A stretch of 50,910 nt of DNA, from the sequence record NC_048132.1; one strand, given 5' to 3'. The position numbers and the translations under genes were made by a program. Below are positions 1 through 35,972 of the stretch, piece by piece (within the stretch, counting starts at the first letter, position 1; every line of letters begins with the position of its first letter). This stretch comes from Escherichia phage vB_EcoS-95. Below the pieces are notes generated by a model that saw nothing but the letters and a program-made list of their open reading frames with translations, did no database searches and was not told the DNA's origin.

Positions 1-302
1 TCTTTGCTTTGATAGTAACGCAGTGTTTCCGCTACGTCTTGCGCCAGCCCGTCAACCGTTAACGAGTCATGCAGCAAGATCAGGTAATTTGTCTTCTGGA
101 CTACCGCGCCGCCAGTGGTAATTGCGCGAATGCTTGTATCGCTAATCACTTCTGTGATCACGGCAGCCTGCAAAGGTTGAGTGAGAAAGAAAATAGTTGC
201 ACCTGGGCGAATCAATGTTAATTGCTCGCGCCATTTTGTGTCGTAACCAGTTACATAACCTTGAGCGTCCATAGACGCTTGGCCTTGTCTGTAAATCGCC
301 AT
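1..302 (-). CDS. 5' fragment of an ORF running off the window start; probable N-terminus of the tail-fibre gene if the genome is circular
   Basis: ATG at 302-300 preceded by AGGAGG; 100 codons open to position 3 ([28 protein letters not shown]...RYYQSK); not in ORF track because no stop in window. Confidence 0.4.
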
Positions 303-320
303 TTGTAAAATCCTCCTAAA

Positions 321-339
321 TAGCACTTTTTGCTAATGA
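321..339 (+). promoter_or_regulatory. Variant copy of the 19-bp box (TAGCACTTTTTGCTAATGAC); its reverse complement abuts the RBS of the minus ORF at 302
   Basis: Sequence match to the multi-copy box; TGCTAT on the minus strand lies just upstream of AGGAGG. Confidence 0.4.
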
Positions 340-365
340 CAATGCAGATAATAGCATTTTCAGGT

Positions 366-393
366 GCAAAAAAAAACCCCGCATAAGCGGGGC
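366..393 (-). terminator. Rho-independent terminator downstream of the primase gene
   Basis: Hairpin CCCCGC-ATAA-GCGGGG (377-392) followed on the minus strand by a T9 run. Confidence 0.6.
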
Positions 394-408
394 AATACTA
401 GCGGAGTT

Positions 409-1338
409 TTATAGCAGTGATTCAGGCTTGTAGATTTTTCTTTCTACGCCCTGTTTAAAATTATCGTTAACAGGCATCATTATGTCAAGACCTCTTTCCT
501 CTGCTGCGATTATCACATCACGATCATCTTTCCGGCAGACTACGCGCATTCTTCTTTCTCCTTTATATCTATGCGCAACCATTTCAAGATTTGAAGGAGT
601 AAAGCAGGCCCACACCTCTTGACCAGTTGACAAATGAACATGCTGGGAATCAACCCAATCAAGGCACAAATAGATCGTCTTATCTGTGCTACCTGTTTTA
701 ACAACAGACCCGCGCGTGTAGTCGCGAGCTAAAAACCAATCCTTTCCATCCTCATCAATGAAAAGCACGTTACACATTTCATCATCCAGCCCGTCATCAT
801 GCACCAGGTGACAAGGTAGCGCGTGAATGTATCGACCATCCTTGACGCCGCAATCATAATGACAACCTTCCGGCGGATATATCCCCTCATAAACGCTTAA
901 AGGTGTGCGATCGAATTTTAATGTTTTTGCCATCACTTTTTCGCAGCATTCATGACTTGCCTGTTTCCCGAACGAGTAACCAGAAGAACGCGAAGCGCGT
1001 TTGTTTGCTCTGATCCTGTAATCCTGCGGCACTTTTCCGAGGAAGCGGCCCAAAATGTTGATGGCCTCGCTGTAAGGTTCGCCAGTTAATTTCATTAACC
1101 AACCGATCCCCGTGTCGTTACCGCACACGTTGCAGATCGCGCCGCCGTCTCCCTCTTCATTTAGCTTATCAGTCCATCTAAAACGATCCTTACCGCCGCA
1201 GTGTGGGCAAGGCTGATGCTTTTTGTTGAAAACATCGCTATGCAGTCCGCAAATGCTTTGTAGTGCTTCACGCCATAACCCCTTCATATATGGCAAAACA
1301 TCTTCTTTCTGATAGGTCATAAAGTTTTCAGTATTCAT
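409..1338 (-). CDS. DNA primase (zinc-ribbon type)
   Basis: CPHCGGKDRFRW...CNVCG zinc-ribbon typical of phage/plasmid primases; acidic DxD-rich C-terminal half; start moved to MNTENF (RBS GAGGT) from track start 1365. Confidence 0.5.
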   Translation of the reverse strand: MNTENFMTYQKEDVLPYMKGLWREALQSICGLHSDVFNKKHQPCPHCGGKDRFRWTDKLNEEGDGGAICNVCGNDTGIGWLMKLTGEPYSEAINILGRFLGKVPQDYRIRANKRASRSSGYSFGKQASHECCEKVMAKTLKFDRTPLSVYEGIYPPEGCHYDCGVKDGRYIHALPCHLVHDDGLDDEMCNVLFIDEDGKDWFLARDYTRGSVVKTGSTDKTIYLCLDWVDSQHVHLSTGQEVWACFTPSNLEMVAHRYKGERRMRVVCRKDDRDVIIAAEERGLDIMMPVNDNFKQGVERKIYKPESLL

Positions 1339-1392
1339 AGCAACCTCAATAAAAAAGCCCAGCAAATATTATCATTTCGCTGGGCCTTATCA

Positions 1393-1869
1393 TTAGCTAT
1401 TCGTGCTGTTATCACCTTTGTAGAATCTTCCGCCTGGTTCGTAGTCTGAATTTTTGACTACGCGCAACATTTCGTATTTGTCGCAACGGGTAGTAAGAGG
1501 CTTGCCGTTAGAATCAAACCGCAGATCTGGACGACAAAACGAGGCGCGGTATCCTTTGCATCCATTATATTTGTAGTCGTTATGCACCTTTTGTGCTCCA
1601 GCGGCTGAAATCATACCACGCTTTCGCCATTGGTTAACTACTTGCTGAGATACGCGTAGACGTCGAGCCATAGCAGGGACACCGCCGTAATACTCGATCA
1701 GAATGTCAAGGCGAGATTTCAGGCTTGCTTTTACCTCATCTCGCAGGATAAGAAATCCGGTTCGGTGTTTTCGTGGCTTTTTGTCTTTACCTCGTCGCGT
1801 TCCGTTGTTACCGTTAATAGTGCGCTTGTCGATCTCACCCGTAGACACTGCAATTCGTGCATCTTTCAT
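1393..1869 (-). CDS. HTH DNA-binding protein (Cro/YdaS-like motif), candidate regulator
   Basis: GGVPAMARRLRVSQQVVNQWRKRGMIS resembles Cro/CI-type helix-turn-helix; basic N-terminus; divergent from the helicase gene. Confidence 0.4.
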   Translation of the reverse strand: MKDARIAVSTGEIDKRTINGNNGTRRGKDKKPRKHRTGFLILRDEVKASLKSRLDILIEYYGGVPAMARRLRVSQQVVNQWRKRGMISAAGAQKVHNDYKYNGCKGYRASFCRPDLRFDSNGKPLTTRCDKYEMLRVVKNSDYEPGGRFYKGDNSTNS

Positions 1870-1881
1870 CTAGTCACCTCA

Positions 1882-1924
1882 TAGCATTTTTTGTTAAAAC
1901 AGTTTATTGTAATGAGTCTATTAT
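1882..1924 (+). promoter_or_regulatory. Box promoter (TAGCATTTTTTGTTAAAAC + -10-like TATTAT at 1919-1924) upstream of helicase
   Basis: Box and -10-like hexamer at the family-typical spacing; the reverse complement of the box abuts the RBS of the divergent HTH gene. Confidence 0.5.
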
Positions 1925-1956
1925 ATACTCCAAATGGCATTTTTTAAAGGTTTAAG

Positions 1957-3954: not shown

Positions 3955-4373
3955 TGGCTATAACTGATAAAGGAGATTATCTTGAGTTTTACGAAAGAGA
4001 TCCAACCGACACGAGAAAGGAAGTTAATCACCAGATAGATAGCTTTCAGTGGTTGACTTATGCTCATCCTTATTTGCTAGCGTGGCATACGGTAAACGAG
4101 AATGAGAAGTCGAAAGTAACGGCGATGATTGATCAGCAGTCCGGCTTGGTTAAGGGGGTAAGCGATTTCATCATCCTGATTGGTTCAAACGGAAAATACC
4201 CCTTTGCAGCGATTGAGATCAAACGAGTTAATAAATCAGGCAAGGGGAAAGCATCACCAGTCAGCGATGAACAAAAGGCTTTTTTGCGTCGCGTTCGCAG
4301 TTTAGGAGGATTCGCTGCGGTCGCCTACGGATTTAATCAGTTTAAGTTAGCTATTGAATACATGCTTAAATAG
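3954..4373 (+). CDS. VRR-NUC domain nuclease
   Basis: GVSDFIILIG...AIEIKRVNKSGKG...QKAFL pattern typical of VRR-NUC (PD-(D/E)XK) nucleases; start overlaps helicase stop. Confidence 0.55.
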   Translation: MAITDKGDYLEFYERDPTDTRKEVNHQIDSFQWLTYAHPYLLAWHTVNENEKSKVTAMIDQQSGLVKGVSDFIILIGSNGKYPFAAIEIKRVNKSGKGKASPVSDEQKAFLRRVRSLGGFAAVAYGFNQFKLAIEYMLK

Positions 4374-4413
4374 CACTTTTTGTTAAAACTGGCGCGATGG
4401 ATTGCGCCATAAT
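4371..4413 (+). promoter_or_regulatory. Box promoter (box 4371-4389 overlapping stop TAG; hairpin GGCGCGATGGATTGCGCC; -10-like CATAAT 4408-4413)
   Basis: Exact 19-mer TAGCACTTTTTGTTAAAAC; fixed 18-bp gap to -10-like hexamer. Confidence 0.6.
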
Positions 4414-4452
4414 TCAATAACACGAGATGGCTTTTAATAGCGGAGAAATGAA

Positions 4453-5178
4453 ATGGCTAAAGATATTTTAGATAAAGACACTCATGACGCATTCGTTAGC
4501 TTTGAGCAGTTGGAGAGAGAAACATTTATAGGTAATGCTCTTGCAACTGGAGGCCATTACCAGGCAGTAAAGCCAAATCAATATTATAAGGTAAGCGGCA
4601 ACCGATACGCTGGAAGCACCACGCCGGACGTTGTGCGCGATATGTGGAGCACTCCTCAAGAGATCGTGGAGTGGATGGAATCAGAATTTGGTGAATACGA
4701 TCTCGACGCAGCAGCAAGCCAGGAAAACGCAGTTTGCGAGAAGTTCTATAGCAAGGAAACAAACTGCTTAAAGCGTTGGTGGGGTAGCAACAAGCACGTA
4801 TGGCTTAACCCGCCGTACAGCAACCCAACTCCATTTATCAAGAAAGCAATTGAGCAAATGGAGCACAACAACCAAATTGATGTTTTGTTGCCAGCCGACA
4901 ACTCTACAGCATGGTTTTATGAAGCGCAGAAAAACGCGGCTGAAATCATCTGGATCACTGGCGAGGTTTACGAAGATGGTGGAGTAGAATACTCCCGCAC
5001 CGGAAGAATCGCCTTTGTGTCTGGATTGACTGGCGAGCCTGTGCAGGGCAACAACAAAGGAAGCGTGATTTTTGTCATGCGCAAACTTAAAGAAGGCGAG
5101 GAGCAGAAAACGCGATACGTTAAGATCAGCGATATTTGCCCTTCTGTAACAGAACGTCGCGCACGCAAACGGAGCTAA
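4453..5178 (+). CDS. dam: DNA N6-adenine methyltransferase (phage Dam family)
   Basis: NPPY catalytic motif (HVWLNPPYSNPTPF) characteristic of phage Dam-type methyltransferases; 241 aa. Confidence 0.7.
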   Translation: MAKDILDKDTHDAFVSFEQLERETFIGNALATGGHYQAVKPNQYYKVSGNRYAGSTTPDVVRDMWSTPQEIVEWMESEFGEYDLDAAASQENAVCEKFYSKETNCLKRWWGSNKHVWLNPPYSNPTPFIKKAIEQMEHNNQIDVLLPADNSTAWFYEAQKNAAEIIWITGEVYEDGGVEYSRTGRIAFVSGLTGEPVQGNNKGSVIFVMRKLKEGEEQKTRYVKISDICPSVTERRARKRS

Positions 5179-5182
5179 CACG

Positions 5183-5440
5183 ATGAAAAAAGAGAGAAGC
5201 GTTTATTTAAATGAAACTGGCGAATGGTTGTTATTTCGCGCTATGGTGTGCGATGCACTTGATAAAAACCCTAACGTGAAAAAGATGATTGATTGCGATC
5301 CGTGGGAATTTTCAAGCGCATTAGATATGAGCTTTGAGGAGACAAGAAAACTACCGCTTGAAAAATGGCACGAACAAATAAGAAATGACATGCAAGAGTT
5401 TGTCGATTCGTGGAATTTTCAGAACGGAATGATCCACTAA
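5183..5440 (+). CDS. Hypothetical protein
   Basis: 85-aa ORF with RBS; stop TAA directly followed by the box. Confidence 0.4.
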   Translation: MKKERSVYLNETGEWLLFRAMVCDALDKNPNVKKMIDCDPWEFSSALDMSFEETRKLPLEKWHEQIRNDMQEFVDSWNFQNGMIH

Positions 5441-5483
5441 TAGCATTTTTTGTTAAAACGCCCGGCATTTTGTCGGGCATAAT
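5441..5483 (+). promoter_or_regulatory. Box promoter (TAGCATTTTTTGTTAAAAC, hairpin GCCCGGCATTTTGTCGGGC, CATAAT 5478-5483, leader CATAGAAACGAA)
   Basis: Box + hairpin + -10-like hexamer at family spacing. Confidence 0.6.
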
Positions 5484-8619: not shown

Positions 8620-8655
8620 AATTTTACCTTTTGGTTGTTTCGTTTCGATGAAACA

Positions 8656-8698
8656 AATATACCCGACACTAGGCCGGGCGTTTTAACAAAAAATGCTA
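8656..8698 (-). promoter_or_regulatory. Box promoter (minus strand; -10-like TATATT; leader CATCGAAACGAA)
   Basis: Reverse complement of box at 8680-8698, hairpin GCCCGGCCTAGTGTCGGG, hexamer at family spacing. Confidence 0.55.
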
Positions 8699-8816
8699 TT
8701 CCATACGCTTTACCGTAACCAGTAATACACCATCACCATTGCATAAAACATGTTCAGTGGTGCTAAAAGCGCGCATATCTGAATAAAGTAGCGTAAGTAA
8801 AGCATGAATAAAATCC

Positions 8817-10817: not shown

Positions 10818-10860
10818 ATTTTAACGGCCCAATACTACCCCGTTTTGTCAAAAAGTGCTA
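10818..10860 (-). promoter_or_regulatory. Box promoter variant (TAGCACTTTTTGACAAAAC) upstream of SF3 helicase
   Basis: Box overlaps stop TAG of the upstream gene; hairpin GGGCCGTTAAAATTTACGGCCC; -10-like TAAAAT. Confidence 0.5.
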
Positions 10861-11079
10861 TTTGATCCGCTCTATTGCAACCAGAAGTCGATCAGGCTGG
10901 CGGTCGCTGTAGCATTCTCCTGTAATCCCATCCTTAAACGCAAAGTAAAGCGCCTTATGATATGAAAAACCAATCAGCCAACCTACCGCCGTTTTTTTGA
11001 TGGGCCTGACTATATCGCCAGGCTTGAAAGTCTTTGTGGTAGAATGCGTTACTTTGTAACGGTTTTCACTGTTTATCAC
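10858..11079 (-). CDS. Hypothetical protein
   Basis: 73-aa ORF. Confidence 0.35.
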   Translation of the reverse strand: MINSENRYKVTHSTTKTFKPGDIVRPIKKTAVGWLIGFSYHKALYFAFKDGITGECYSDRQPDRLLVAIERIK

Positions 11080-11491: not shown

Positions 11492-11534
11492 ATTATGCCA
11501 GGTTTTTACACCTGGCTTTTAACAAAAAGTGCTA
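11492..11534 (-). promoter_or_regulatory. Box promoter (minus; hairpin GCCAGGTGTAAAAACCTGGC; CATAAT; leader CACATCGAACAAAC)
   Basis: Box overlaps stop TAG of the methyltransferase-like gene. Confidence 0.55.
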
Positions 11535-12242
11535 TTTTGAGTTTGACTCAAAGACGGCGCGAGCAAATCCGCGCGGAGTGAGTGAGCGGATCATCTTTGT
11601 GCGCGATGACTTACCGCCAGTTTTGGCCCAGCCTGGATTATCTTTGTCTTCCTCTTTCGGCAGGATTAAAGCGCGCGGAGGAATAACAAAGCCGTTGCCA
11701 GTCCAGAGGCACGTTTTCTTAAAATAGCGATCCCGCGCCGGAATAATATCAGGGAAGTCGGGATGTTTATCATCTTCCGGCAGATAGCCAGCGTAATCGC
11801 ACGGATGGAACGTATAATCAGGCTTTCGCCATAACGTTGACAACTTGCCAACCGGATTTTCGATCATGTAAGGAACACCGAAATAATCAGCTATATCAGC
11901 CGCGATTCTGCAAGTGTCGGCGGCCTCATCCTGGAACGATGGATTCTCAAGGCGTTTTTTGGCCCAATGGCGAGATCCGCTATTTGCAAGGTCGGTGCAC
12001 GGCGGAAATGCCATAATAAAGTCAGGAATGCCCCATTCCTCCCAGCGCGCGCGGTGGTAAAATCTTTCATCAATCCAGACGTTAACGTATTCGATATTCT
12101 CATGCTGTATGCGCACTGACTGGTAATCACCGTGATCGCCACCGTCAGCATTAAAGCAAATGCACTTATAGCCATTATCAGCCCAATCTTTAACGGCTTT
12201 ACCAGATCCATCAAATAGTGAGAATATTAAACCTTTATACAT
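11532..12242 (-). CDS. Compact DNA C5-cytosine methyltransferase-like protein (atypical PCT catalytic motif)
   Basis: Motif I LFDGSG, motif IV FPPCTDLANSGS (PCT instead of PCQ), motif VI ENPVG, C-terminal RSLTPRGFARAVF (motif X-like); about 236 aa with no obvious target-recognition domain. Confidence 0.45.
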   Translation of the reverse strand: MYKGLIFSLFDGSGKAVKDWADNGYKCICFNADGGDHGDYQSVRIQHENIEYVNVWIDERFYHRARWEEWGIPDFIMAFPPCTDLANSGSRHWAKKRLENPSFQDEAADTCRIAADIADYFGVPYMIENPVGKLSTLWRKPDYTFHPCDYAGYLPEDDKHPDFPDIIPARDRYFKKTCLWTGNGFVIPPRALILPKEEDKDNPGWAKTGGKSSRTKMIRSLTPRGFARAVFESNSK

Positions 12243-13690: not shown

Positions 13691-13733
13691 AATATACCAT
13701 TCAGGCGCACATCGTTTTTAACAAAAAGTGCTA
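13691..13733 (-). promoter_or_regulatory. Box promoter (minus; -10-like TATATT; leader CATCGACAACAA)
   Basis: Box overlaps stop TAG of upstream gene; fixed spacing to hexamer. Confidence 0.55.
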
Positions 13734-14021
13734 TTCAACAACTTTTCCAGTTAAAGAGATAAGTTGCCTTGTAATCTTGTGGCGGCGATACTTACGCGCA
13801 ACAACAGGAAGGCTTTCACCGCTTTGATGACCAAAACAGATCGGCAATTCACCTTCAAGGGAGCGGAAGCCACCAAATTCAAGATCCCGCACTGGCTTAG
13901 CGCGCCAGGCTTCAATAAATCCGCGCTCGTCACGAGTGATATAGCGGTATATGTTCGGGAGGGGCAATTGTATCCCCTCAAAATCCACGGTATCGGTATA
14001 GCTATAAAACTTAGAACTCAT
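13731..14021 (-). CDS. Hypothetical protein
   Basis: Trimmed to MSSKFYSY (RBS GGAG) from track 13731-14072. Confidence 0.4.
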   Translation of the reverse strand: MSSKFYSYTDTVDFEGIQLPLPNIYRYITRDERGFIEAWRAKPVRDLEFGGFRSLEGELPICFGHQSGESLPVVARKYRRHKITRQLISLTGKVVE

Positions 14022-14196: not shown

Positions 14197-14239
14197 AATG
14201 TACAGGAATGCGAGGATTGAGTTTTAACAAAAAGTGCCA
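14197..14239 (-). promoter_or_regulatory. Box promoter (minus; variant TGGCAC; -10-like TACATT; leader CATCGACAACGAA inside a 12-bp inverted repeat that includes the RBS)
   Basis: ATCCTCGCATTC ... GAATGCGAGGAT inverted repeat spans hexamer, leader and RBS. Confidence 0.55.
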
Positions 14240-14240
14240 T

Positions 14241-15466: not shown

Positions 15467-15500
15467 TGCTATCTCCTGAGCGGTTCGTTTCGATGTGTGT

Positions 15501-15543
15501 AATGTACCCGATCAGACGGCCTGAGTTTTAACAAAAAGTGCTA
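15501..15543 (-). promoter_or_regulatory. Box promoter (minus; -10-like TACATT; leader CATCGAAACGAA)
   Basis: Exact reverse-complement box at 15525-15543. Confidence 0.55.
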
Positions 15544-15544
15544 T

Positions 15545-16623: not shown

Positions 16624-16883
16624 TGAAAAAGGCATTAATCGGCGTTTTGGCGGCAATGACACTCCTGACCGGATGCGAAAAGGCATCAGAATCAACGGTT
16701 GTCGTAGGCGTTGAGTCAGATTTCAAAGTCGGCCGCCTGTTCACTGTTGACGGATGCACAGCATACAGATTCTATGATAACGGTCGCGCGATCTATTACA
16801 CCAGTTGCAAAGGCGCAACGGATAGCACATACAACAGCGGAAAGAACGTAATGCACCAGCAAGTCACAACAGATATTAAATAG
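16623..16883 (+). CDS. Putative lipoprotein
   Basis: Signal peptide with lipobox LLTGC; 86 aa. Confidence 0.5.
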   Translation: MKKALIGVLAAMTLLTGCEKASESTVVVGVESDFKVGRLFTVDGCTAYRFYDNGRAIYYTSCKGATDSTYNSGKNVMHQQVTTDIK

Positions 16884-16923
16884 CACTTTTTGTTAAAACG
16901 CCAGGCGCAAAGCCTGGCATAAT
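16881..16923 (+). promoter_or_regulatory. Box promoter (hairpin GCCAGGCGCAAAGCCTGGC; CATAAT; leader CATCGAAACGAG)
   Basis: Exact box overlapping stop TAG. Confidence 0.6.
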
Positions 16924-16955
16924 AGCCTCATCGAAACGAGATTGAGTAAACAAAA

Positions 16956-17342: not shown

Positions 17343-17343
17343 A

Positions 17344-17386
17344 TAGCACTTTTTGTTAAAACTCAAAAACGATAACCAGGCATAAT
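17344..17386 (+). promoter_or_regulatory. Box promoter (CATAAT at 17381-17386)
   Basis: Exact box one base after stop TAA. Confidence 0.6.
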
Positions 17387-18335: not shown

Positions 18336-18561
18336 GTTTGCTCACTGCGGCGCACGTCGCCGCATGGATCGGATTGTTTGCCTACCTGTTTAGCTTTTAT
18401 TGAGGTGAGAGATGACTACCTGGATTTTGCTGATTCTTATGATTGATGGCGGCGTTGACCATATCGAAATGAATAGCCAGCAATCTTGCATTGAGGCACG
18501 AGAGCAGATCAAGAACAACAACAGGTTTTATGTGTACACTCACACGCTATGTATTAAGAAA

Positions 18562-18603
18562 TAGCACTTTTTGTTAAAACTCAAATTTGGGGCCAGGTAT
18601 AAT
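18562..18603 (+). promoter_or_regulatory. Box promoter (hairpin GGGGCCAGG..GGCCC with TATAAT)
   Basis: Exact box overlapping stop of a small upstream ORF. Confidence 0.55.
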
Positions 18604-19316: not shown

Positions 19317-20027
19317 ATGAAAAAATACACTTTCGAACTGTGGGGCAAGAAGTACGAATTAATCACCAGCAAGCCGATTGTTATCGTTGACCTGGACGGC
19401 ACACTATCGGACGGATCGCATCGTTTGCACTTGCTGCCAACTGAAAACTTGCACCTTACGGAATCTTGGCGCGAGTTTAACAGGTCCGCCGCCGGAGATT
19501 CACCTATTAAAAGCACGATCGCGGTTATTAACGGTTTGTGGGTGTCTGGATTTGCCATCGTCATCTTGACCGGACGCAGCGACGAGGTTCGCTATGAAAC
19601 CTGCAAATGGTTGAATGAGAACGGCGTGAAGTTTGACGAAATCATCATGCGCCGCCAGGAGGACAACCGAAAGGATACGGTTATTAAAGAAGAAGCCTTG
19701 CGCGCTATTGGCCTGGACAACATTGTTTGCGCCTTTGACGATTCGCCGAACGTGGTTAAGCACTTCCGCAGCTTGGGGATCACAACCTATCAGGTCACGG
19801 AATACGACAAGCCACACGCTCACATACAATCTCACGGCGTGGAATCAATCAAGATAACGAAGCGCGCCCGATTCGTTGGCAGCAAAGATAGCCTTGTCAA
19901 TGCCAGCTTTACCAGAGGAATAGCATATGACGTTGTTTCTTATCATGACAAGAGTTTTATAGTTCATGATGATTCTGGATGCGCATGGTCATTCAATCAT
20001 AGTGACGGCGATTTTGTTAATGCGTAA
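19317..20027 (+). CDS. HAD-superfamily phosphatase (nucleotidase or polynucleotide 3'-phosphatase-like)
   Basis: HAD motif I VIVDLDGTLSDG; later FDDSP motif; start at MKKYTFELW. Confidence 0.5.
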   Translation: MKKYTFELWGKKYELITSKPIVIVDLDGTLSDGSHRLHLLPTENLHLTESWREFNRSAAGDSPIKSTIAVINGLWVSGFAIVILTGRSDEVRYETCKWLNENGVKFDEIIMRRQEDNRKDTVIKEEALRAIGLDNIVCAFDDSPNVVKHFRSLGITTYQVTEYDKPHAHIQSHGVESIKITKRARFVGSKDSLVNASFTRGIAYDVVSYHDKSFIVHDDSGCAWSFNHSDGDFVNA

Positions 20028-20070
20028 TAGCACTTTTTGTTAAAACATCTCAACGGGCTTGCGGTATAGT
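20028..20070 (+). promoter_or_regulatory. Box promoter (hairpin GGGCTTGCGGTATAGTAAGCCC; -10-like TATAGT; leader CATCAACAACAAACGAGGA)
   Basis: Exact box directly after stop TAA. Confidence 0.6.
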
Positions 20071-20942: not shown

Positions 20943-21533
20943 ATGAAACGAGACATTATTATCCTTAATGGGCCGCCTGGCTGTGGAAAGGACACTATTG
21001 CAGCTTACCTAACGGGCCATCGTTACCCAGCGGTTAAGGCGTCATTCAAACAGCCGATGTTCGATATTGCGTTTTCCATGCTGGGCGTGTACCGATACGA
21101 TGAATTTATGGACCTGTACAACGACCGAGAACAAAAAGAAAAGCCTCAAGTTATTTTGGGCGGCAAGTCACCTCGACAATTCATGATCTGGATTAGCGAG
21201 GATGTAATGAAGCCAGTTTTTGGAGATCACTATTTCGGGCGTCGAATGGTTGAAGAGATTCACGAGATGTACCGAGATTTGGCGGTTGTGATCAGTGATG
21301 GCGGATTCCCCGAAGAAATCAAGCCGCTGGTTAAGGCAGGGCATGAAGTGCATATTTGCAGATTGCATCGCGACGGCTTCACGTTTGCTGGCGATTCGAG
21401 AGACTACATTGACCTGAGCGGTTATCACTATCGAATCCATCACTATGATTTCCACTTGCAGGACGGCAAGCCAGATCTGGCTGTAAACGAGATCGTCAAT
21501 ACGGTCAAATGGAAGCACACACAGATTAAATAG
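20943..21533 (+). CDS. P-loop kinase, deoxynucleoside monophosphate kinase-like
   Basis: N-terminal Walker A ILNGPPGCGKDT resembling phage dNMP kinases; 196 aa. Confidence 0.45.
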   Translation: MKRDIIILNGPPGCGKDTIAAYLTGHRYPAVKASFKQPMFDIAFSMLGVYRYDEFMDLYNDREQKEKPQVILGGKSPRQFMIWISEDVMKPVFGDHYFGRRMVEEIHEMYRDLAVVISDGGFPEEIKPLVKAGHEVHICRLHRDGFTFAGDSRDYIDLSGYHYRIHHYDFHLQDGKPDLAVNEIVNTVKWKHTQIK

Positions 21534-21573
21534 CACGAATTGCTAAACGCGGGGTTATCGGCCCCGCTATAAT
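21531..21573 (+). promoter_or_regulatory. Box promoter variant (TAGCACGAATTGCTAAAC; hairpin CGGGGTTATCGGCCCCG; TATAAT)
   Basis: Box overlaps stop TAG; leader CACATCAACAATCAAGAGG. Confidence 0.5.
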
Positions 21574-22533: not shown

Positions 22534-22824
22534 ATGGCAAACAAAACTTACCGCAAACTACTGGTTAACGCTTTTGAAAACATCGCGCAGTCTAACAAGT
22601 GGAACGACTCTAAACACTCGCCAGTCACAATGAAGCGCGTCGGATTCAAAAATGCTCGTTCATGGGCGCGAGCTTTCGCAGCTTGCTATATGCCGGATGG
22701 TGGACTAGGAGCGATGAACGATTTTTTGATCAACATGATAGAGGAAGCTGCGCGAGAGGATCGACCGCTGACACAGCGAGATTTTGACGACTTCGCGCGC
22801 GATGAGCTTTACTATCTGAGCTAA
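22534..22824 (+). CDS. Hypothetical protein
   Basis: 96-aa ORF; stop followed by box. Confidence 0.4.
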   Translation: MANKTYRKLLVNAFENIAQSNKWNDSKHSPVTMKRVGFKNARSWARAFAACYMPDGGLGAMNDFLINMIEEAAREDRPLTQRDFDDFARDELYYLS

Positions 22825-22867
22825 TAGCACTTTTTGTTAAAACTTCCGCAAGGGCATTTGATAAAGT
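22825..22867 (+). promoter_or_regulatory. Box promoter (hairpin GGGCATTTGATAAAGTGCCC)
   Basis: Exact box immediately after stop TAA. Confidence 0.55.
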
Positions 22868-25477: not shown

Positions 25478-27045
25478 TGATCATATGGGAAGATTTGACG
25501 GCGGCGCAAAAGCGAGCCATTAAAGAAATCAGTGAGCATTCATTCGAAAAGATGATCAGAATCTGGTTCCAATTATTGCAGGGGCAAAAATTCCAGAGCA
25601 ACTGGCATTTTAGCTTATTGTGCAGTGAGGTAGAGAAGATCATCAATGGAGAGTCGCAGAATGTTATTTTCAACATTACGCCAGGTAGCGGTAAGACTGA
25701 GATTTTCTCAATCCACATGTCACCCTACGCGTCATTGAAAAGCCGGAAGGTGAGAAATCTTAACCTTTCGTTTAGTGATGGACTTGTCCAGCAAAACAGC
25801 AACCGGATAAAGGAGATTATTGGTTCTCCTGAGTGGCAAGAGCTATGGCCTGGAAAACTGGCAAAGGCGAGCGCTAAAGATCTGATAGTCACCGAAGGCG
25901 GCAAGGTTAAATTGCAGGTTAACTCACGTTCTATTGGCGGCCAGGTAACAGGTTTGCGTGGCGGCTATATGGATGATGGTTTTACTGGTATGCTGGTTCT
26001 TGACGATCCAGACAAGCCGGATGATATGCTTTCTAAGGTCAAGCGTGAGGCTATCCACATGCGGCTAAAAAACACAGTGCGATCGCGTCGAATGAAAGAC
26101 ACCACGCCGATTGTTATGGTGCAACAGCGACTACACGTTAATGATTCCACCTGGTTTATGCTTAATGGCGGGATGGGTGGTATTGAGTTTAAAGTTGTGA
26201 GCATTCCGGCGCTGGTTACGAAAGAATACCGCGAAACACTTCCTGATTGGTTGAAGCCTGAATTTGATCGTGATGTTCTGTCAAGTAAGCCAGTGATGAT
26301 AGATGGCGTTGCTCATTATTCATTTTGGCCTGCGAAGGAAAGCGCGGAGGAGTTGCTTGCATTGCGCAATGCAGATCCTTACACGTTCGCCAGCCAATAC
26401 CAACAGCAACCAATCGCGCTTGGCGGCAACGTGTTTAAAACAGAGTGGTTCCAGTATTACGGCAGCGGCGAAAAATGCGCACTACCAAAACCGGATCGCT
26501 TTGAATACACATTTATTACTGGAGATACCGCGCAGAAGGCCGGAGAGCTTAACGACTATTCAGTTTTTTGTTATTGGGGGATGTATAAGAATCGCGTTTA
26601 CTTCATTGATGGCATTCGCGGAAAGTGGGAAGCGCCGGATCTTGAATTAAATTTTATTGCCTTCGTTAACCAGTGCTGGAAGCGCAATAAGGAGTGTGGC
26701 AGCTTGCGACGTATCCACATTGAGGATAAGGCCAGCGGAACTGGTTTGATTCAGGGGGCCAAAAAGAAGATCCCGATTGATATAAATCCCGTTCAGCGAA
26801 GCAACGACAAGGTAACGCGAGCAATGGACGCCGCGCCAGTGATGAGGGCCGGACGTGTGGCACTGCCAGAAAATCACCCCATGCTGCCTGAGATACTGGC
26901 AGAGGTTGCAGCATTCACTTTTGATGATTCTCATCCCCATGATGATATTGTCGATAATATAGTTGATGCTGTTAACGTAGAAATGAATTTGGCAGATGAT
27001 CCGGTAGCAAGGATGAAAAAGCTGGCAGGTCTACGCAATAAATAG
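25477..27045 (+). CDS. Terminase large subunit
   Basis: Walker A-like ITPGSGKTE, Walker B MLVLDDPD; 522 aa between TerS and portal. Confidence 0.75.
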   Translation: MIIWEDLTAAQKRAIKEISEHSFEKMIRIWFQLLQGQKFQSNWHFSLLCSEVEKIINGESQNVIFNITPGSGKTEIFSIHMSPYASLKSRKVRNLNLSFSDGLVQQNSNRIKEIIGSPEWQELWPGKLAKASAKDLIVTEGGKVKLQVNSRSIGGQVTGLRGGYMDDGFTGMLVLDDPDKPDDMLSKVKREAIHMRLKNTVRSRRMKDTTPIVMVQQRLHVNDSTWFMLNGGMGGIEFKVVSIPALVTKEYRETLPDWLKPEFDRDVLSSKPVMIDGVAHYSFWPAKESAEELLALRNADPYTFASQYQQQPIALGGNVFKTEWFQYYGSGEKCALPKPDRFEYTFITGDTAQKAGELNDYSVFCYWGMYKNRVYFIDGIRGKWEAPDLELNFIAFVNQCWKRNKECGSLRRIHIEDKASGTGLIQGAKKKIPIDINPVQRSNDKVTRAMDAAPVMRAGRVALPENHPMLPEILAEVAAFTFDDSHPHDDIVDNIVDAVNVEMNLADDPVARMKKLAGLRNK

Positions 27046-27060
27046 CACTAATTGCTAAAA
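27043..27060 (+). promoter_or_regulatory. Box variant (TAGCACTAATTGCTAAAA) overlapping TerL stop
   Basis: Sequence match to box; followed by TATATAAT and a terminator hairpin rather than the usual spacer hairpin. Confidence 0.4.
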
Positions 27061-27074
27061 AGTTATATAATCAA

Positions 27075-27100
27075 GGCTGGATTTTTCCAGCCTTTTTTAT
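27075..27100 (+). terminator. Rho-independent terminator-like hairpin between TerL and portal
   Basis: GGCTGG-ATTTTT-CCAGCC followed by TTTTTTATT. Confidence 0.5.
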
Positions 27101-30824: not shown

Positions 30825-30838
30825 ATGGAGAAATTATT

Positions 30839-31852
30839 ATGGCTTATGAAAATTTAATGATGCACTATGCATGTCCTGGCAATCTCTCTGATACTTCAAC
30901 ATATAACATTGATGGCGCTTGTGTTGCTCAAGGTGATATTAAGTTTGGATCAGCGGTTCGGGTTGTCGGAATAGTGGATGGAATGAGGGTTGTGACGGCG
31001 CTTTCTGATGGTGAAACTCCTTACGGCATCGCTTTTCGTTCCCAATATGAGCACCTGAGCGGTAAAATTCTCGACGGAGAGGTGTGTAACGTCGTTTCTC
31101 ACGGTCGGGTGTGGGCGCTTACTTCTCTTAGTGAAGCCCCGAAATCATTCTCAAAACTAAGAATCGGTGTTGGAGGAGTAGTAACTGGCGTAGATGATTA
31201 TGTTGGTTGGACCTTTGCTGGTGGCTTTGTTAAGCACGAAGACGGTCACATTATTGAGGTTCAGGTGAAGCAAAATGCTCTAATCGTTCCACCCCCTCCG
31301 CCTCCTGTGGTGCTGGTAGAGTCTGCAACAATTAACACTGACAAGGAGAGTCCGCAGCCAAACAATGCTCCTGTAAAATGCAGTATCACAGTAGAGCCTG
31401 GCAACGCCACCGATAAAACTGGTGTTTGGTCTGTTGATGCTGTAAACATTGCGACTATTGATGCCGATACAGGTATTCTAACTCCTGTTGGTAGTGATGC
31501 ATTCGGTAGTGTAAACGTAAATTGGACTGCTAACGATGGAAGCAAGACTAAGGCCACGATTGTTTATCAATTCGAAAAAGCTGTTGTTAGCGTCGCTAGT
31601 GCAACCGTAAGCCTTGAGAAAAATTCTGCAATTGTTGGTGAAGCCGTTCAGGCGAGCGTTGTCGTTGCTCCAGAAGGTGCTACAAATAAATCCGGTTCTT
31701 GGTCTTTGTCAAGTGGTGATTTTGCATCTGTAGATCCTGGTACTGGACTAGTAACTACTATCGCCGCTGGCGAGGTTGATGTTATCTGGACCGCTGCTGA
31801 TGGTTCTGGCGTTAAAGGTCAGCAAAGACTAACCATCACCGATCCTGAATAA
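30839..31852 (+). CDS. Capsid decoration-like protein (paralog B) with Pro linker and two Ig-like (Big_2-type) domains
   Basis: N-terminal paralogy to 30299-30778; PPPPPPVV linker; two repeats of Ig-like pattern (ATID..TG.LT..G.......V.WTA.DGS). Confidence 0.45.
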   Translation: MAYENLMMHYACPGNLSDTSTYNIDGACVAQGDIKFGSAVRVVGIVDGMRVVTALSDGETPYGIAFRSQYEHLSGKILDGEVCNVVSHGRVWALTSLSEAPKSFSKLRIGVGGVVTGVDDYVGWTFAGGFVKHEDGHIIEVQVKQNALIVPPPPPPVVLVESATINTDKESPQPNNAPVKCSITVEPGNATDKTGVWSVDAVNIATIDADTGILTPVGSDAFGSVNVNWTANDGSKTKATIVYQFEKAVVSVASATVSLEKNSAIVGEAVQASVVVAPEGATNKSGSWSLSSGDFASVDPGTGLVTTIAAGEVDVIWTAADGSGVKGQQRLTITDPE

Positions 31853-31869
31853 CATAAAAACGCTTTGAC

Positions 31870-31892
31870 GCTTTAACAAAAAGTGCTATCAT
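31870..31892 (+). promoter_or_regulatory. Reverse-orientation box giving an extended -10 (TGCTATCAT) with upstream TTGACG, ahead of the major capsid gene
   Basis: TTGACG-16 bp-TATCAT with TG at -15/-14; sequence is the reverse complement of the early box. Confidence 0.45.
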
Positions 31893-31933
31893 CTAGGCCG
31901 TTACATTTAACGGCCTTTTATGGAGGAAACAAA

Positions 31934-32905: not shown

Positions 32906-32916
32906 TTAGATAACAT

Positions 32917-32947
32917 GGGGAGCCTTAATGGTTCCCCTTTTTTTATT
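32917..32947 (+). terminator. Rho-independent terminator after the major capsid gene
   Basis: GGGGA..TCCCC hairpin followed by T-run. Confidence 0.55.
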
Positions 32948-32962
32948 TATGGAGCACACAAA

Positions 32963-33229
32963 ATGAGCAAAAATTTAAAACTTAAAGTAACTGGCGTTTG
33001 CATGATTGTTATGGACGGCAAGCGTTATCATCCTGGTGATGAAATTGAAATTGAATCCGATCGCATTAATGACTCCGCAATTGAATACCTGATCGCTCGC
33101 GGAGATGTGGAAGTTAAAGACAATTCCGAAATTAACGAGCAAATCAAGGAGAAAGCTGAGAAGAAGCGCAAAAAAGATCCTACCGAGGGTAAGAGCCGCA
33201 AAGAACTAGAGGATGGCGGCGAATATTAA
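32963..33229 (+). CDS. Hypothetical structural protein
   Basis: 88-aa ORF, start at MSKNLKLK. Confidence 0.35.
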
Positions 33230-33275
33230 TAATTGGGGCGCTTATGCGCCCCTTGTCACATCTGGAGAAAACAAA

Positions 33276-33695
33276 ATGGTAGATGAATTTTACACAGAAG
33301 CTGAAATCGTTCAGCAAATCGTAAAGTTAGCGCCGCCAATGCAACAAGTTGATCCCGATTTAATTGTGGCATGGATTGAGCTTGCTAAAGAGTTTGTTTG
33401 CAAAAAGCGGTTTAAAAACTCATACCCGAAAGCGGTTGCGCTTTACACTCTTCACCTTATGACCTTAGACGGGGCAATGAAACAGGAAGGTGAAAGCGTA
33501 GAAAGCTATTCCCGCCGCGTTGCCTCGTTCACTCTGACTGGTGAGTTTAGTCAGACGTTTGATCGAATTTCTTCCGATACAAGCGGAAAGCAGATCCGAC
33601 AAACGCCGTGGGGCAAAATGTACGAAGTGTTAAACCGTAAGCACGGTGGCGGCTTTGGCCTTGTGACTGGATTGCGCCGGAGATGCTGCCGATGA
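33276..33695 (+). CDS. Putative head-tail connector protein
   Basis: Position after capsid genes; start at MVDEFYTE (RBS GGAG). Confidence 0.35.
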
Positions 33696-34063
33696 ACTAC
33701 AATGAGATTGCAAGAATGGCTACGGCTGGGATTAACTTTTTCAGCGACGCTAACGGTATGTTTAAGTGCATCACGCAGCAGGGCGGAGTTGAGATTATCG
33801 GCGGAGAGGAAGTTACCAAGCCGGAGATTTCAGTGATGATAAAGGGGCTTGTTAGATCCCCGAGAGCTAGAGAGGTTGACGGTGAAACAATCAGAGTGAC
33901 CGACAAGCTGGGGATATTCACCAATGAAACTGAGATCAAAAATGGTTATCAGATTGAAATTGATGGCGAACGTTATGTTGTCGTTGAGGCAAGACCAGTC
34001 AGGCAGACTAACATCACGGCAGCTTATCGTCCGGTATTAAGGAGGATTGCTGTGCATGGCTGA
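33683..34063 (+). CDS. Putative head closure / adaptor protein
   Basis: Position; 126 aa; overlapping start. Confidence 0.3.
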
Positions 34064-34499
34064 TAATTATAAGGTTAGGGAATTTCACGGTGATATAAGC
34101 AGGTGGATTGATTCAGTAAGCAGCGGCCTTGTTGATTGCGTTGAAATGTTCGCGACAAACGTCCACGAGGATCTTGTAAAGCGCTCGCCAGTTGATACGG
34201 GCCGATATAAAGCTAACTGGCAGATAACAGCAAACAAGCCGCCGCTATATGCGCTCAACCAATACGATCTCGATGGTAGTAAAACCATTGCAGAAGGCAA
34301 GCGAGCAATATATGCAATCATGCGTGGCGGTGGCGCTGTGCGATCAATCTATTTTTCAAACATGCTCATTTACGCCAACGCGCTTGAATACGGTCATTCA
34401 AAACAAGCGCCGTCCGGCGTACTTGGAATCGTGGCGGTAAAGCTGCGATCTTATATGGCTAAGGCAATAAAGGATTCGAGGGCAAAAAATGCACTATGA
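34047..34499 (+). CDS. Neck / tail completion protein (HK97 gp10-like)
   Basis: VDTGRYKANWQI motif typical of HK97 gp10 family; 150 aa. Confidence 0.45.
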   Translation: MLCMADNYKVREFHGDISRWIDSVSSGLVDCVEMFATNVHEDLVKRSPVDTGRYKANWQITANKPPLYALNQYDLDGSKTIAEGKRAIYAIMRGGGAVRSIYFSNMLIYANALEYGHSKQAPSGVLGIVAVKLRSYMAKAIKDSRAKNAL

Positions 34500-34890
34500 T
34501 TTAATGTTGGCGGCAAGAAAGGCGCTGGCGGCTGAATATGAATCACGATTTAAGATAGCCTATGAAAACGTTGATTTTGTGCCGCCTGGAGATGGTTCTA
34601 TGTGGTTAAAATTTAACTACATGGAAGCGGACACGGATCGCATATCTCTTGATAGAAAATGTGTTTCTTACATCGGTTTGGTTCAGGTTGGAATTGTCAT
34701 TCCTCCTGGCGGTGGCACTGATAAAGCGCGTTTGCTGGCTAAAGAGATTGCGAGATTTTTCTATGATGGTAGAATGTTTGAAACTGGCTATATTAGCGAG
34801 GGAGCAAACGTCCACGCATTACTAAAAAGTGAAACAGGTTGGTTCTTGCCGATCCGTTTCAGTGTTAGGCTTGATACAAAGGAGGAATAA
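34489..34890 (+). CDS. Putative tail terminator protein
   Basis: Position immediately upstream of major tail gene; 133 aa. Confidence 0.3.
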   Translation: MHYDLMLAARKALAAEYESRFKIAYENVDFVPPGDGSMWLKFNYMEADTDRISLDRKCVSYIGLVQVGIVIPPGGGTDKARLLAKEIARFFYDGRMFETGYISEGANVHALLKSETGWFLPIRFSVRLDTKEE

Positions 34891-34892
34891 TC

Positions 34893-35555
34893 ATGCACTT
34901 GCCTAATGGTTCTCAAATTTTCATCGGCGTTAATATGGGTGATCCAATTCAAGCTACTGATATTTCAAACGCTAAAGATCCGGTTTTTACTGTTAGTAAT
35001 TCACAGCAGGTCAAAAAAGGTGCTTATGTTCTGATTGAAACGTCTTCCTGGGGTAAACTGGTTAGTCGTGTGTTGCGGGTAAAAGAAGTATCTGATAACG
35101 CAAGCGTAACTCTTGAAGGTGTAGACACAACCGATCAAAACGTATTTCCGGCTGGTTCTAATGCAGCAACTTTCCGAGAGGTGAAATCTTGGGTAGAGGT
35201 TCCTTGCGTACAGGATCTTGCGCAGGACGGCGGCGAGCAACAGTATTACACTTATCAGTGTTTGGCTGATGACCAGGAGCAGCAGTTACCGACTTACAAG
35301 AGCGCAGTTTCTCTTACCTACACTTTCGCGCATGAATATGATAACCCGATTTATCCGATCTTGCGCAAGGCTGAGGAATCCGGCGACGTAACCGCTTTGC
35401 GTATGTACGTTCCGAAAGCTAAAGAGATGCGTTGCTGGGCTGGCGTATTGTCTTTTAATGACATTCCGCAAACCACTATGAACGAAATGGAAACTGTTTC
35501 CCTTTCCGTATCTCTGAAAGGTCGATTTACGTTCTTACCTTCCGACGTTAAGTAA
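34893..35555 (+). CDS. Major tail protein
   Basis: 220-aa ORF upstream of the G/GT chaperone and tape measure (lambda V position); RBS AGGAGG. Confidence 0.5.
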   Translation: MHLPNGSQIFIGVNMGDPIQATDISNAKDPVFTVSNSQQVKKGAYVLIETSSWGKLVSRVLRVKEVSDNASVTLEGVDTTDQNVFPAGSNAATFREVKSWVEVPCVQDLAQDGGEQQYYTYQCLADDQEQQLPTYKSAVSLTYTFAHEYDNPIYPILRKAEESGDVTALRMYVPKAKEMRCWAGVLSFNDIPQTTMNEMETVSLSVSLKGRFTFLPSDVK

Positions 35556-35560
35556 AACAA

Positions 35561-35581
35561 GGGGCGTTGCGCCCCTTTTTT
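35561..35581 (+). terminator. Rho-independent terminator after the major tail gene
   Basis: GGGGC-GTTGC-GCCCC followed by TTTTTT. Confidence 0.6.
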
Positions 35582-35620
35582 CATTCCTGTAAAATCAATC
35601 TATCAAATAAATCAATTCCA

Positions 35621-35639
35621 CTTTTAACAAAAAGTGCTA
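35621..35639 (+). promoter_or_regulatory. Reverse-orientation box giving TGCTATAAG extended -10-like element directly abutting the RBS of the tail chaperone gene
   Basis: Reverse complement of the box; AAGGAG RBS starts 1 nt after the box. Confidence 0.45.
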
Positions 35640-35654
35640 TAAGGAGATCTTGAG

Positions 35655-35972
35655 ATGGCAAAGATGAAACTAACGTTAGGCCCACTGCCTGATTTTAAGC
35701 TGCCTGTTTCTTTCGTGCTTCCAAATGGTGATGAGCAAGTTATTGTTTTTACCGTGCGCCACAAGAAGGCAAGCGAGATTCACGAACGATACACGGCAGA
35801 AAAGCCGATGAGTGACGTAGAAATGATCACCTTCCTTGCTTCCGGTTGGGATCTGGAAGATGAATTTAACGAGGAAAACGTTGCTAAATTGCTGGATTAT
35901 TACCCTTCTGCGTCATTATCGCTGACTGGTCATTATATGAAAGCACTTGCGGGGCAGCGGGTAAAAAACTAA
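35655..35972 (+). CDS. Tail assembly chaperone (lambda gpG analogue)
   Basis: 105-aa ORF between major tail and tape measure; ends in slippery heptamer. Confidence 0.65.
   Translation: MAKMKLTLGPLPDFKLPVSFVLPNGDEQVIVFTVRHKKASEIHERYTAEKPMSDVEMITFLASGWDLEDEFNEENVAKLLDYYPSASLSLTGHYMKALAGQRVKN

Follow-up and report, generated by a model that had tools for sequence, protein, structure and literature searches.

Promoter context of the reversed copies of the T1-family repeat in Escherichia phage vB_EcoS-95

A short repeat, here called the box, occurs 21 times in a 50,910-nucleotide (nt) stretch of Escherichia phage vB_EcoS-95 (NC_048132.1), which was analysed over its whole length and is referred to as the window. 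Four of the copies stand in reversed orientation directly upstream of the genes for the tail fibre, a helix-turn-helix (HTH) regulator, the major capsid protein and the first tail chaperone. The reading we favour, with slightly less than even confidence, is that the box forms the upstream part of a promoter module specific to the phage and serves as operator for a DNA-binding regulator that the phage encodes, and that the reversed copies are placed on or just after promoters that are independent of it. A preliminary description of the window had reported the four reversed copies and named the genes behind them; all four were recovered within 1–3 nt of the positions given there, and the gene identities agree with orthologues in phages T1, TLS and KP36. 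Annotated orthologues in these phages identify the open reading frame (ORF) from 302 (minus strand) as tail fibre, 1393–1869 (minus strand) as the "transcriptional regulator" of the family with its HTH, 31934 (plus strand) as major head protein and 35655 (plus strand) as the first tail-chaperone/tape-measure frameshift gene. The gene order of the window likewise agrees with T1, TLS and KP36; it belongs to a T1-like coliphage (Drexlerviridae), the capsid region being 97–98% identical to NorthRox, vB_Eco_mar001J1 and swan01.

Geometry and sequence of the box

With the degenerate consensus ATAGCAC-N3-TTG-N-TAA, 21 copies were found in the window compared to 1.8 expected from mononucleotide shuffles. 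The 17-mer TTAACAAAAAGTGCTAT gave 19 matches at ≤3 mismatches (0.31 expected), a number attained by none of 100 shuffles. Among IMG/VR contigs, the box was multi-copy solely in those of 46–53 kilobases (kb). The repeat itself is already known, the present phage being one more carrier: in phage TLS, a direct repeat of 21 nt, aaATAGCACnnnTTGnTAAAA, was described at 21 intergenic places, and similar repeats in T1, Rtp and Rogue1 were given as unpublished observations (German et al. 2024, PMC11447400). Stoperators, enhancer sites or UP elements were suggested for it, and its function was called an open question for T1-like phages (PMC11447400). The copies in the window share the sequence and the phage family and are members of that repeat family, including the four reversed ones, which match aaATAGCACnnnTTGnTAAAA with no or one mismatch at conserved positions. 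Seventeen copies show the arrangement of the repeat family, being oriented with transcription and located ~76 nt before a start codon. The copies at 320, 31873 and 35624 are opposed to their flanking genes and lie 14–44 nt from the start codon, and the copy at 1881 has the usual arrangement for the helicase gene only. The TLS account (PMC11447400) does not include reversed copies, the 21-nt register described below, half-site symmetry or copies inside late promoters; TLS itself carries a reversed copy ahead of its capsid gene. We know of no other description of the strict promoter register, the half-site symmetry, or the existence, conservation and heterogeneity of copies that are reversed or off-register at late and self promoters.

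After an alignment of all copies with their flanks, 85 box copies from the window, T1, TLS and KP36 were scanned for the register. The best −10 match lies exactly 21 nt past the 17-mer in 59 of the 85 copies and at 20–22 nt in 66. The profile of 60 registered modules reads aAATAGCACTTTTTGtTAAAAC, ~14 nt, tGgTATAAT, 4 nt and cCtCAtcgAAac (its end can also be read as tGgTATAAT-N4-cCtCA), the G at −14 being well conserved. The predicted start is a C/A, 7 nt past the hexamer; a conserved leader and a Shine–Dalgarno sequence come next. By its sequence, the canonical module is a promoter of the extended −10 type that has no −35 hexamer, positions −35 to −30 reading AAAAC(t). Relative to the predicted start, the box covers −50 to −34 with its centre at −42, which is the place of a class II activator site, centred near −41.5 of a promoter that lacks a −35 hexamer. 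The window contains 17 canonical modules, each ahead of non-structural genes (primase, helicase, small-gene and replication/recombination blocks, 4.3–23 kb and 46.4 kb), and none within the structural module (27.1–45.2 kb). Reversed and off-register copies are all found at structural genes or at the regulator gene.

The core of the box, TAGCA-N5-TG(C/T)TA, has its symmetry centre at −42. Its two halves are perfect inverted repeats of each other in GAA-type boxes (ATAGCACGAATTGCTAA), found in T1, TLS and the window, as well as at 320, 27042 and 46401. What varies is the centre (TTT, GAA, AAA); the half-sites are constant, at canonical and reversed sites alike. The flanks are asymmetric, with AATAGCAC on one side and TTGnTAAAA on the other, so that the orientation is real. 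By its sequence, the box looks like a 17-base-pair (bp) pseudo-symmetric operator of the lambda type.

Several other identities were considered and rejected. A sigma-54 (−24/−12) promoter does not fit, as AGCAC-N3-TTGC corresponds to AG-N8-GC and not to GG-N10-GC (TGGCAC-N5-TTGC), being 2 nt short and missing the first G; it would also leave the conserved −10 at 21 nt unexplained. A T4 MotA box, (a/t)3TGCTT(t/c)A, to which TTTTGCTAAA is similar, is centred at −30 and placed 12 ± 1 bp from the −10 element and not 22 bp. Rfam covariance models (gathering threshold) and a tRNA scan gave no match and no tRNA in the whole window. To our knowledge, none of the consensus sites of IHF, Fis, CRP, DnaA, ArcA and LexA fits the box.

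The register and the base composition bear on two further explanations. According to the first, host RNA polymerase would read the box directly, using the A/T tract like a UP element and TTGnTA as a displaced −35 contact. The reversed copies would then be by-products, the likeness at the capsid gene arising from shared polymerase-binding words and the other copies being recombination relics. UP elements were among the proposals of the TLS authors (PMC11447400), the box contains a TTG and A/T runs, and its reverse strand provides the TGnTAT that the capsid and tail-fibre promoters use as extended −10. Furthermore, early genes need transcription before any phage protein exists, and BLAST homology between phages frequently ends right at the capsid box, as it would at a recombination joint. 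Nevertheless, we consider direct reading unlikely: the best-conserved positions, ATAGCAC, are not A/T-rich and do not resemble a UP element, which is a degenerate A/T-rich tract at −38 to −59 with no G/C-specific core, the A/T tract of the box can be exchanged (TTT, GAA, AAA), TTGnTA lies 22 bp from the −10 and thus beyond the spacer range of sigma-70, with nothing −10-like at 17 bp, and an invariant 17-mer at the tail chaperone lies downstream of the promoter, where a UP role does not apply.

The second explanation, which we also regard as unlikely, is a stoperator-like silencer: a phage protein on all copies would repress or block transcription, e.g., for a late shut-off of early genes or for insulation, and box orientation would reflect the direction of the polymerase that is stopped. 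This agrees with the many asymmetric and mostly transcription-oriented copies in short intergenic gaps right after stop codons, with the analogy to mycobacteriophage L5 stoperators drawn by the TLS authors (PMC11447400), and with the copies at late and self promoters, which occupy typical repression positions. However, a roadblock has no need for the strict 21-nt register with the −10, which is typical of polymerase recruitment, and many modules of the window look activator-dependent by their weak cores (CATAAT, neither a T at −15 nor a −35). A virulent phage, moreover, does not need global silencing, and if late transcription were blocked in an orientation-dependent way, the reversed copies would point in the wrong direction.

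Two side observations concern the canonical modules. The first ~12 transcribed bases are conserved (C-A-TCGAAACGAA or CATCGACAACGA) in the window (e.g., 8640–8660 and 15470–15500 on the minus strand, 16925–16945 on the plus strand), T1, TLS, KP36, Vc1 and the AAS23-like phage. A G+C-rich hairpin is often present in the 21 nt that separate box and −10 (e.g., 5457–5480, 8660–8682, 16897–16918), and in T1 and TLS an inverted repeat brackets the −10 itself instead (e.g., GGGGTA...TATAGT TACCCC). The spacer hairpin sits in the read-through RNA of the upstream gene, outside the transcript of the module, and might terminate weakly, stabilise the 3' end or act as a processing site.

Reversed copies at structural and regulator genes

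The reversed copies are not due to chance, as T1 has reversed copies at all four orthologous sites. The preliminary description had proposed that they place TGCTAT, as an extended −10, 1–40 nt before the ribosome-binding sites of the four genes. The distances agree, TGCTAT lying 2, 0, ~32 and 0 nt from the Shine–Dalgarno sequence at 320, 1881, 31873 and 35624, respectively; by sequence, the promoter function is supported for the capsid gene and not for the other three.

At the capsid gene, box and promoter coincide (Table 1). A promoter scan identified TTGACG, a 16-nt spacer and TGc-TATCAT, a 10/12 match to sigma-70 with TG, and a start downstream of TATCAT would leave a leader of ~35 nt that includes the ribosome-binding site. 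Across 61 distinct capsid upstream sequences from IMG/VR, T1, TLS and KP36, TTGNNN-N16/17-TAnnnT is present in all, and TG at −15/−14 in 58; the GenBank record of KP36 annotates a promoter at this site. The box copy is found in nearly every T1-like lineage sampled and is degenerate in Webervirus, and a 1-nt insertion in three loci (L047, L050 and L101) disrupts it (GTGCTTATCAT) with TATCAT retained. The decay of this copy in Webervirus, which keeps the usual canonical box, argues that the promoter is the primary constraint. The spacer TTTA(A/G)C-N5-(G/A)TG(C/A) is kept in all lineages, with the same central variants as in canonical boxes. Spacers of sigma-70 promoters are normally not conserved in sequence.

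The start is predicted near 31899–31900, inside the 5' arm of a 9-bp hairpin that scores below the threshold of the terminator scan. Read-through transcripts would contain this terminator-like structure, and promoter-initiated ones would not. In many relatives, BLAST homology to the window starts right at the capsid promoter and box (~31846–31872) and the upstream gene (30839–31852) is replaced; the promoter therefore marks a mosaic joint between modules.

That TGCTAT starts transcription of all four genes, making the box a site with two promoter-forming modes, is highly improbable in our assessment. The sequence agrees with it at the capsid gene, as the box provides there, by its TG and TAT, the extended −10 of the universal TTGNNN-N16-TGnTAnnnT promoter, and the tail-fibre promoter uses TGCTAT(A/T)AT as well, though as a separate element upstream of the full box. 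At 320, 1881 and 35624, by contrast, the hexamers TATTTA, TATGAG and TATAAG lack the essential T at −7, which also applies to nearly all relatives (TATCAA, TATAGG, TATCAC and others following TGC), and no −35 was found at a usable distance from any of the three. The Shine–Dalgarno sequence begins 0–2 nt after TGCTAT at these sites, so that the hexamer abuts or overlaps it, and a start 7 nt downstream would therefore yield an mRNA without a ribosome-binding site, i.e., a transcript that is leaderless or begins at or after that site. The assumption that the box drives the tail-fibre, regulator and tail-chaperone genes was not borne out, each of them having a better and more conserved promoter upstream.

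For the tail fibre, aTGCTAT(A/T)AT follows directly after the primase terminator in nearly all of 72 loci, with or without a box, and the TGcTATTAT of the window is predicted to be a strong extended −10 promoter. A full box 5–11 nt after this −10 occurs in many lineages, including the window and T1, and is absent in Webervirus, TLS and the L108 group. The tail-fibre ORF leaves the window at its left end (1–302) and a 559-amino-acid (aa) ORF on the minus strand (49158–50910) ends near the right end; therefore, the window is probably a complete, circularly permuted genome that was opened within the tail-fibre region.

The copy between regulator and helicase had been suggested to serve both divergent genes. 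For the helicase this agrees with the sequence, the box being the canonical upstream element of a module with TATTAT at 1919–1924 and the helicase ATG at 1957. For the regulator it does not, as the box lies inside the leader, at ~+17 to +33, where it touches the Shine–Dalgarno sequence. The regulator promoter identified by the scan, TTTAAA-N17-TATAAT (1948–1920, minus strand), is a 10/12 match. The predicted starts, near 1931 for the helicase and near 1913 for the regulator, are 18 bp apart, which is the commonest spacing of divergent starts at bidirectional promoters of E. coli (PMC12825309). This layout including the box is shared by T1, TLS, KP36, Vc1 and the AAS23-like phage, and the overlapping −10 elements were also found in T1, TLS and KP36.

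The tail chaperone has a conserved promoter, predicted to be of the sigma-70 type: TTGCRY in the terminator loop, N17 and TAnAAT are present in all lineages, with or without a box, and box-bearing lineages have ~30 extra nt between this promoter and the Shine–Dalgarno sequence. The 17-mer is identical in 12/12 distinct box-bearing sequences, with diverged flanks and a freely varying 18-nt spacer. On the opposite strand, exactly 21 nt from the box, TAnnnT is kept in every box-bearing lineage and TG in most of them (GTG, one base closer, in the L005 group), the variants being TGaTAGATT, TGaTAAGAT, TGaTATATT, gTGTATCAT, TGaTAGAGT, TGaTACAGT and TGgTAGAGT. The copy thus belongs to a leftward canonical module as well, one which has no gene to serve. 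The −10 elements of the two strands abut (35590–35595 and 35602–35597), with predicted starts at 35602 and 35590, 12 bp apart.

The predicted antisense RNA of ~40 nt (35545–35590, minus strand) would run from near 35590 into the two-way terminator of the major tail gene and folds into the terminator hairpin (−15.6 kcal/mol, z −2.78). A 77-aa minus-strand ORF (35584–35351) begins 6 nt into this RNA; it is probably spurious, because it lacks a spaced Shine–Dalgarno sequence and is antisense to the major tail gene. Antisense promoters at the capsid and tail-fibre copies were also considered and rejected: at 21 nt on the opposite strand no −10 is present, neither at the capsid copy (TATTCA in the window; TATACA, TAGCAC etc. 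in relatives) nor at 320 (TTTCAG in the window), the hexamers lacking the T at −7 in the window and in relatives.

As three of the four reversed copies are inside predicted 5' leaders and touch the Shine–Dalgarno sequence, the box might alternatively act in RNA or during elongation, as a leader hairpin next to the Shine–Dalgarno sequence or through a sigma-70 pause at TGCTAT that loads an antiterminator for the late terminators. The late region is indeed rich in intrinsic terminators, and a TGnTAT in the non-template strand is of a type known to make polymerase pause in a sigma-dependent manner, as at lambdoid PR'. We judge such a role improbable, given that the 5-bp stem in the reversed RNA has an A–C mismatch in most copies (UAACA/UGCUA) and would be very weak, that the copy at 35624 is, at ~+36, far for sigma retention, and that no Q-like gene was identified and no Rfam match obtained in the window. 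Canonical copies, moreover, lie upstream of their own starts and could not share this function, and the J and terS leaders of T1 and TLS hold the box in the other orientation.

Further boxes were found out of register. The perfect palindrome TAGCA-CTAAT-TGCTA at 27042 is followed by TATAAT only 8 nt downstream (27066–27071), a terminator-like hairpin (~27075–27095) and the portal gene; T1, TLS and KP36 have TATAAT or TAAAAT and a hairpin at the equivalent site, with no clear box. At the tail-tip (J-like) gene, as at the tail chaperone, a −35 TTGCGC in a terminator loop (41508–41513) is followed by N17 and TATAAT (41531–41536). Its leader carries a degenerate forward box ACAGCACAAAAGGTTAAAA (41551–41569) ahead of the ATG at 41574 (window positions 41500–41576), with an AAGG that is probably the Shine–Dalgarno sequence for this ATG; the leader box is kept in T1 (ATAGCACAAAAAGGTAAA) and TLS. 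In T1, a forward box touches the Shine–Dalgarno sequence of terS.

Table 1. Positions of boxes, promoter elements and associated features in the window
Feature	Position	Strand	Details
Reversed box, tail fibre	320..336	−	TTAGCAAAAAGTGCTAT (336->320); perfect half-sites TAGCA/TGCTA; 2 nt upstream of Shine–Dalgarno 317–312, start codon 302
Extended −10, tail-fibre promoter	348..356	−	TGc-TATTAT; predicted start near 341; box at ~+6 to +22
Intrinsic terminator after primase gene	376..393	−	Just upstream of tail-fibre promoter
Canonical module, primase gene	1393..1409	−	ACAGCACGAATAGCTAA, N21, TGaTAATAT; overlaps regulator gene end
Cro-like HTH regulator gene	1393..1869	−	158 aa; candidate box-binding protein
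Box between regulator and helicase	1881..1897	+	Canonical helicase module ATAGCATTTTTTGTTAA-N21-TATTAT; minus strand reads TTAACAAAAAATGCTAT (1897->1881)
Face-to-face −10 elements	1919..1925		Helicase TATTAT 1919–1924 (+), regulator TATAAT 1925–1920 (−); overlap 5 nt
−35 hexamer, regulator promoter	1943..1948	−	TTTAAA; predicted box-independent promoter
Canonical forward module	4370..4386	+	Box-N21-CATAAT
Canonical forward module	5440..5456	+	
Canonical forward module	8683..8699	−	Leftward genes
Canonical forward module	10845..10861	−	
Canonical forward module	11519..11535	−	
Canonical forward module	13718..13734	−	
Canonical forward module	14224..14240	−	
Canonical forward module	15528..15544	−	First of leftward operon
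Canonical forward module	16880..16896	+	
Canonical forward module	17343..17359	+	
Canonical forward module	18561..18577	+	−10 at 20 nt
Canonical forward module	20027..20043	+	
Canonical forward module	21530..21546	+	GAA-type box, perfect half-sites
Canonical forward module	22824..22840	+	
Off-register box	27042..27058	+	ATAGCACTAATTGCTAA; stop codon of large terminase gene
−35 hexamer, major-capsid promoter	31865..31870	+	TTGACG; TTGNNN in 61/61 distinct relatives
Reversed box, capsid	31873..31889	+	TTAACAAAAAGTGCTAT; fills promoter spacer; gives TG at −15/−14 and TAT of −10 hexamer
−10 hexamer, capsid promoter	31887..31892	+	TATCAT
9-bp hairpin, then TTTTAT	31895..31916	+	Between promoter and capsid Shine–Dalgarno; equivalent in relatives
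Terminator hairpin after major tail gene	35559..35577		Terminator-like on both strands; loop holds −35 TTGCGC 35567–35572
−10 hexamer, tail-chaperone promoter	35590..35595	+	TAAAAT; predicted start near 35602; box at ~+22 to +38
Extended −10, antisense	35597..35605	−	TGa-TAGATT; 21 nt from box, strand opposite late genes; predicted start near 35590
Reversed box, tail chaperone	35624..35640	+	TTAACAAAAAGTGCTAT; touches Shine–Dalgarno 35641–35646 (start codon 35655); also upstream box of antisense module
Canonical forward module	46401..46417	−	Leftward genes 46349–45180; −10 at 20 nt

A candidate regulator and the proposed switch

The geometry, the sequences and their family-wide conservation are observed; that a protein binds the box, which protein this is and the sign of its regulation are what we infer. 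The most likely binder would be the Cro-like HTH regulator encoded beside the 1881 copy. It matches PHROG 2856, "transcriptional regulator", at 1.6e-72, and gives weak, sub-threshold matches to YdaS and P22 Cro HTH domains. Its AlphaFold2 model has a pLDDT (predicted local distance difference test) of 85, and the core aligns with Xfaso1 Cro at a template modelling score (TM) of 0.72–0.74 and a root-mean-square deviation of 2.4 Å, and with operator-bound N15 Cro at a TM of 0.66–0.68; the Foldseek E-values are weak, 0.014 at best. The protein is 50–64% identical to its T1, TLS and KP36 orthologues, and homologues are confined to T1-like phages of ~50 kb. Regulator and box were both present in 6/6 T1-like genomes examined, the gene always diverging from the helicase with the box in between, and both the regulator (~50–60% identity) and the same box are found in Vibrio phage Vc1 and an AAS23-like Pantoea phage. 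The predicted box-independent promoter is what an immediate-early gene should have, and the regulator fits this description. Outside the Cro-like core, residues 1–38 contain an invariant basic stretch, IDKRxxNGNNGxRRGKDKKxR, which is predicted to be disordered, and residues 104–129 form a conserved C-terminal extension (GxRAxxxRxDxxFDxNGK...RC); neither part resembles anything solved.

A phage protein bound at −42 would recruit polymerase, in the style of a class II activator, to the 17 promoters without a −35 hexamer. The reversed copies would represent the same box placed on or just past independent sigma-70 promoters, with no second promoter-forming mode except for the overlap at the capsid gene. 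Bound within the capsid spacer or in the leaders of the tail-fibre gene (+6 to +22), the regulator gene (+17 to +33) and the tail-chaperone gene (+22 to +38), the protein would more likely hinder than help transcription. The copies at 1881 and 35624 are, in addition, canonical modules for the opposite strand, the −10 elements of which overlap or abut that of the gene itself, so that activating the box-dependent direction (helicase or short antisense RNA) would exclude polymerase from the regulator or tail-chaperone promoter. At bidirectional promoters, activating one direction represses the other via polymerase competition (PMC12825309). The suggestion of the preliminary description that one regulator binds both orientations and couples middle and late expression is viable; it fits the evidence and comes near to the model we consider best.

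In a bolder and more doubtful version, one Cro-like protein, made from the sole box-independent early promoter, would run the whole T1-type programme via ~20 copies of one asymmetric operator. It would activate all non-structural operons from −42 and, by way of reversed or off-register copies, repress both its own gene and the constitutive-looking promoters of capsid, tail and tail fibre, in two cases through divergent promoter exclusion.

Several points weigh against an operator bound by the regulator. Only 4–5 of the 17 box positions are symmetric, which is less symmetry than dimer operators typically have; a bipartite site for a monomer, or one read in part by RNA polymerase, would be equally conceivable. 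Many canonical modules have a near-consensus extended −10 and might need no activator. The most distant regulator homologues keep the same box, and the link between the two consists of co-occurrence and adjacency. The late promoters would stand open before any regulator is made, and, once repressed, would need later relief, for which the sequence shows no mechanism. The tail-chaperone and tail-fibre copies exist in many lineages and are missing in TLS and Webervirus, and the capsid box of Webervirus has decayed to ATATCACGAATCGTTAA while its canonical boxes are unchanged; the reversed copies are therefore dispensable modulators at best. Finally, in the literature on T1 and Drexlerviridae (box sequence, transcription starts, promoters, binding), only the TLS description was found.

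T1-like phages are common laboratory contaminants and phage-therapy candidates. If correct, the bolder version would answer what the T1-family repeat is for and provide a natural viral case of competition at bidirectional promoters. The analysis equips the repeat with a fixed promoter geometry, a named candidate regulator and predicted start sites, and it predicts that the four conserved off-register copies at late and self promoters respond in the opposite way to the 17 canonical ones. If these predictions hold, the system would be a compact one-protein switch and an instance, in a virus, of control by bidirectional-promoter competition; if not, the reversed copies are still landmarks for late promoters.

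Comparison with known systems

The extended −10 (TGn) class of sigma-70 promoters includes the capsid TGcTATCAT, the tail-fibre TGcTATTAT and, with their G at −14, most canonical modules; three of the four TGCTAT elements proposed earlier fall outside it, lacking T at −7 and leaving no space for a leader. The canonical box occupies the kind of position from which RNA polymerase is contacted by class II activators, e.g., CRP at −41.5 or lambda cI at PRM. The window resembles such promoters (lambda cI OR2/PRM at −42; CRP/FNR at −41.5) in having a pseudo-palindrome of ~17 bp at −42, no −35 hexamer and a candidate binder with a Cro/cI-type HTH. It differs in that the box is more asymmetric than dimer operators and that ~17 promoters of a virulent phage would depend on it, activation being inferred here.

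In phi29, it depends on the position of its sites whether the p4 protein activates, as at the late promoter A3, or represses, as at the early promoters A2b and A2c. By analogy only, the window shows one site family that is placed on different promoter classes so as putatively to activate some and hinder others, which would link temporal classes to each other. The polarity would be reversed, with non-structural genes activated and structural genes hindered, and there is no sequence or protein homology. L5 stoperators are, like the boxes, numerous asymmetric intergenic sites with an orientation bias; however, L5 is temperate and its sites are out of promoter register, whereas the register with the −10 is strict in the window. 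In comparison with bacterial bidirectional promoters (PMC12825309), the starts in the window are predicted ones, and the second direction at 35624 would give only a short, terminated RNA. The likeness to these promoters lies in the 5-nt overlap of the −10 elements and the 18-bp distance of the starts at regulator and helicase, and in the abutting −10 elements of the tail-chaperone and antisense promoters.

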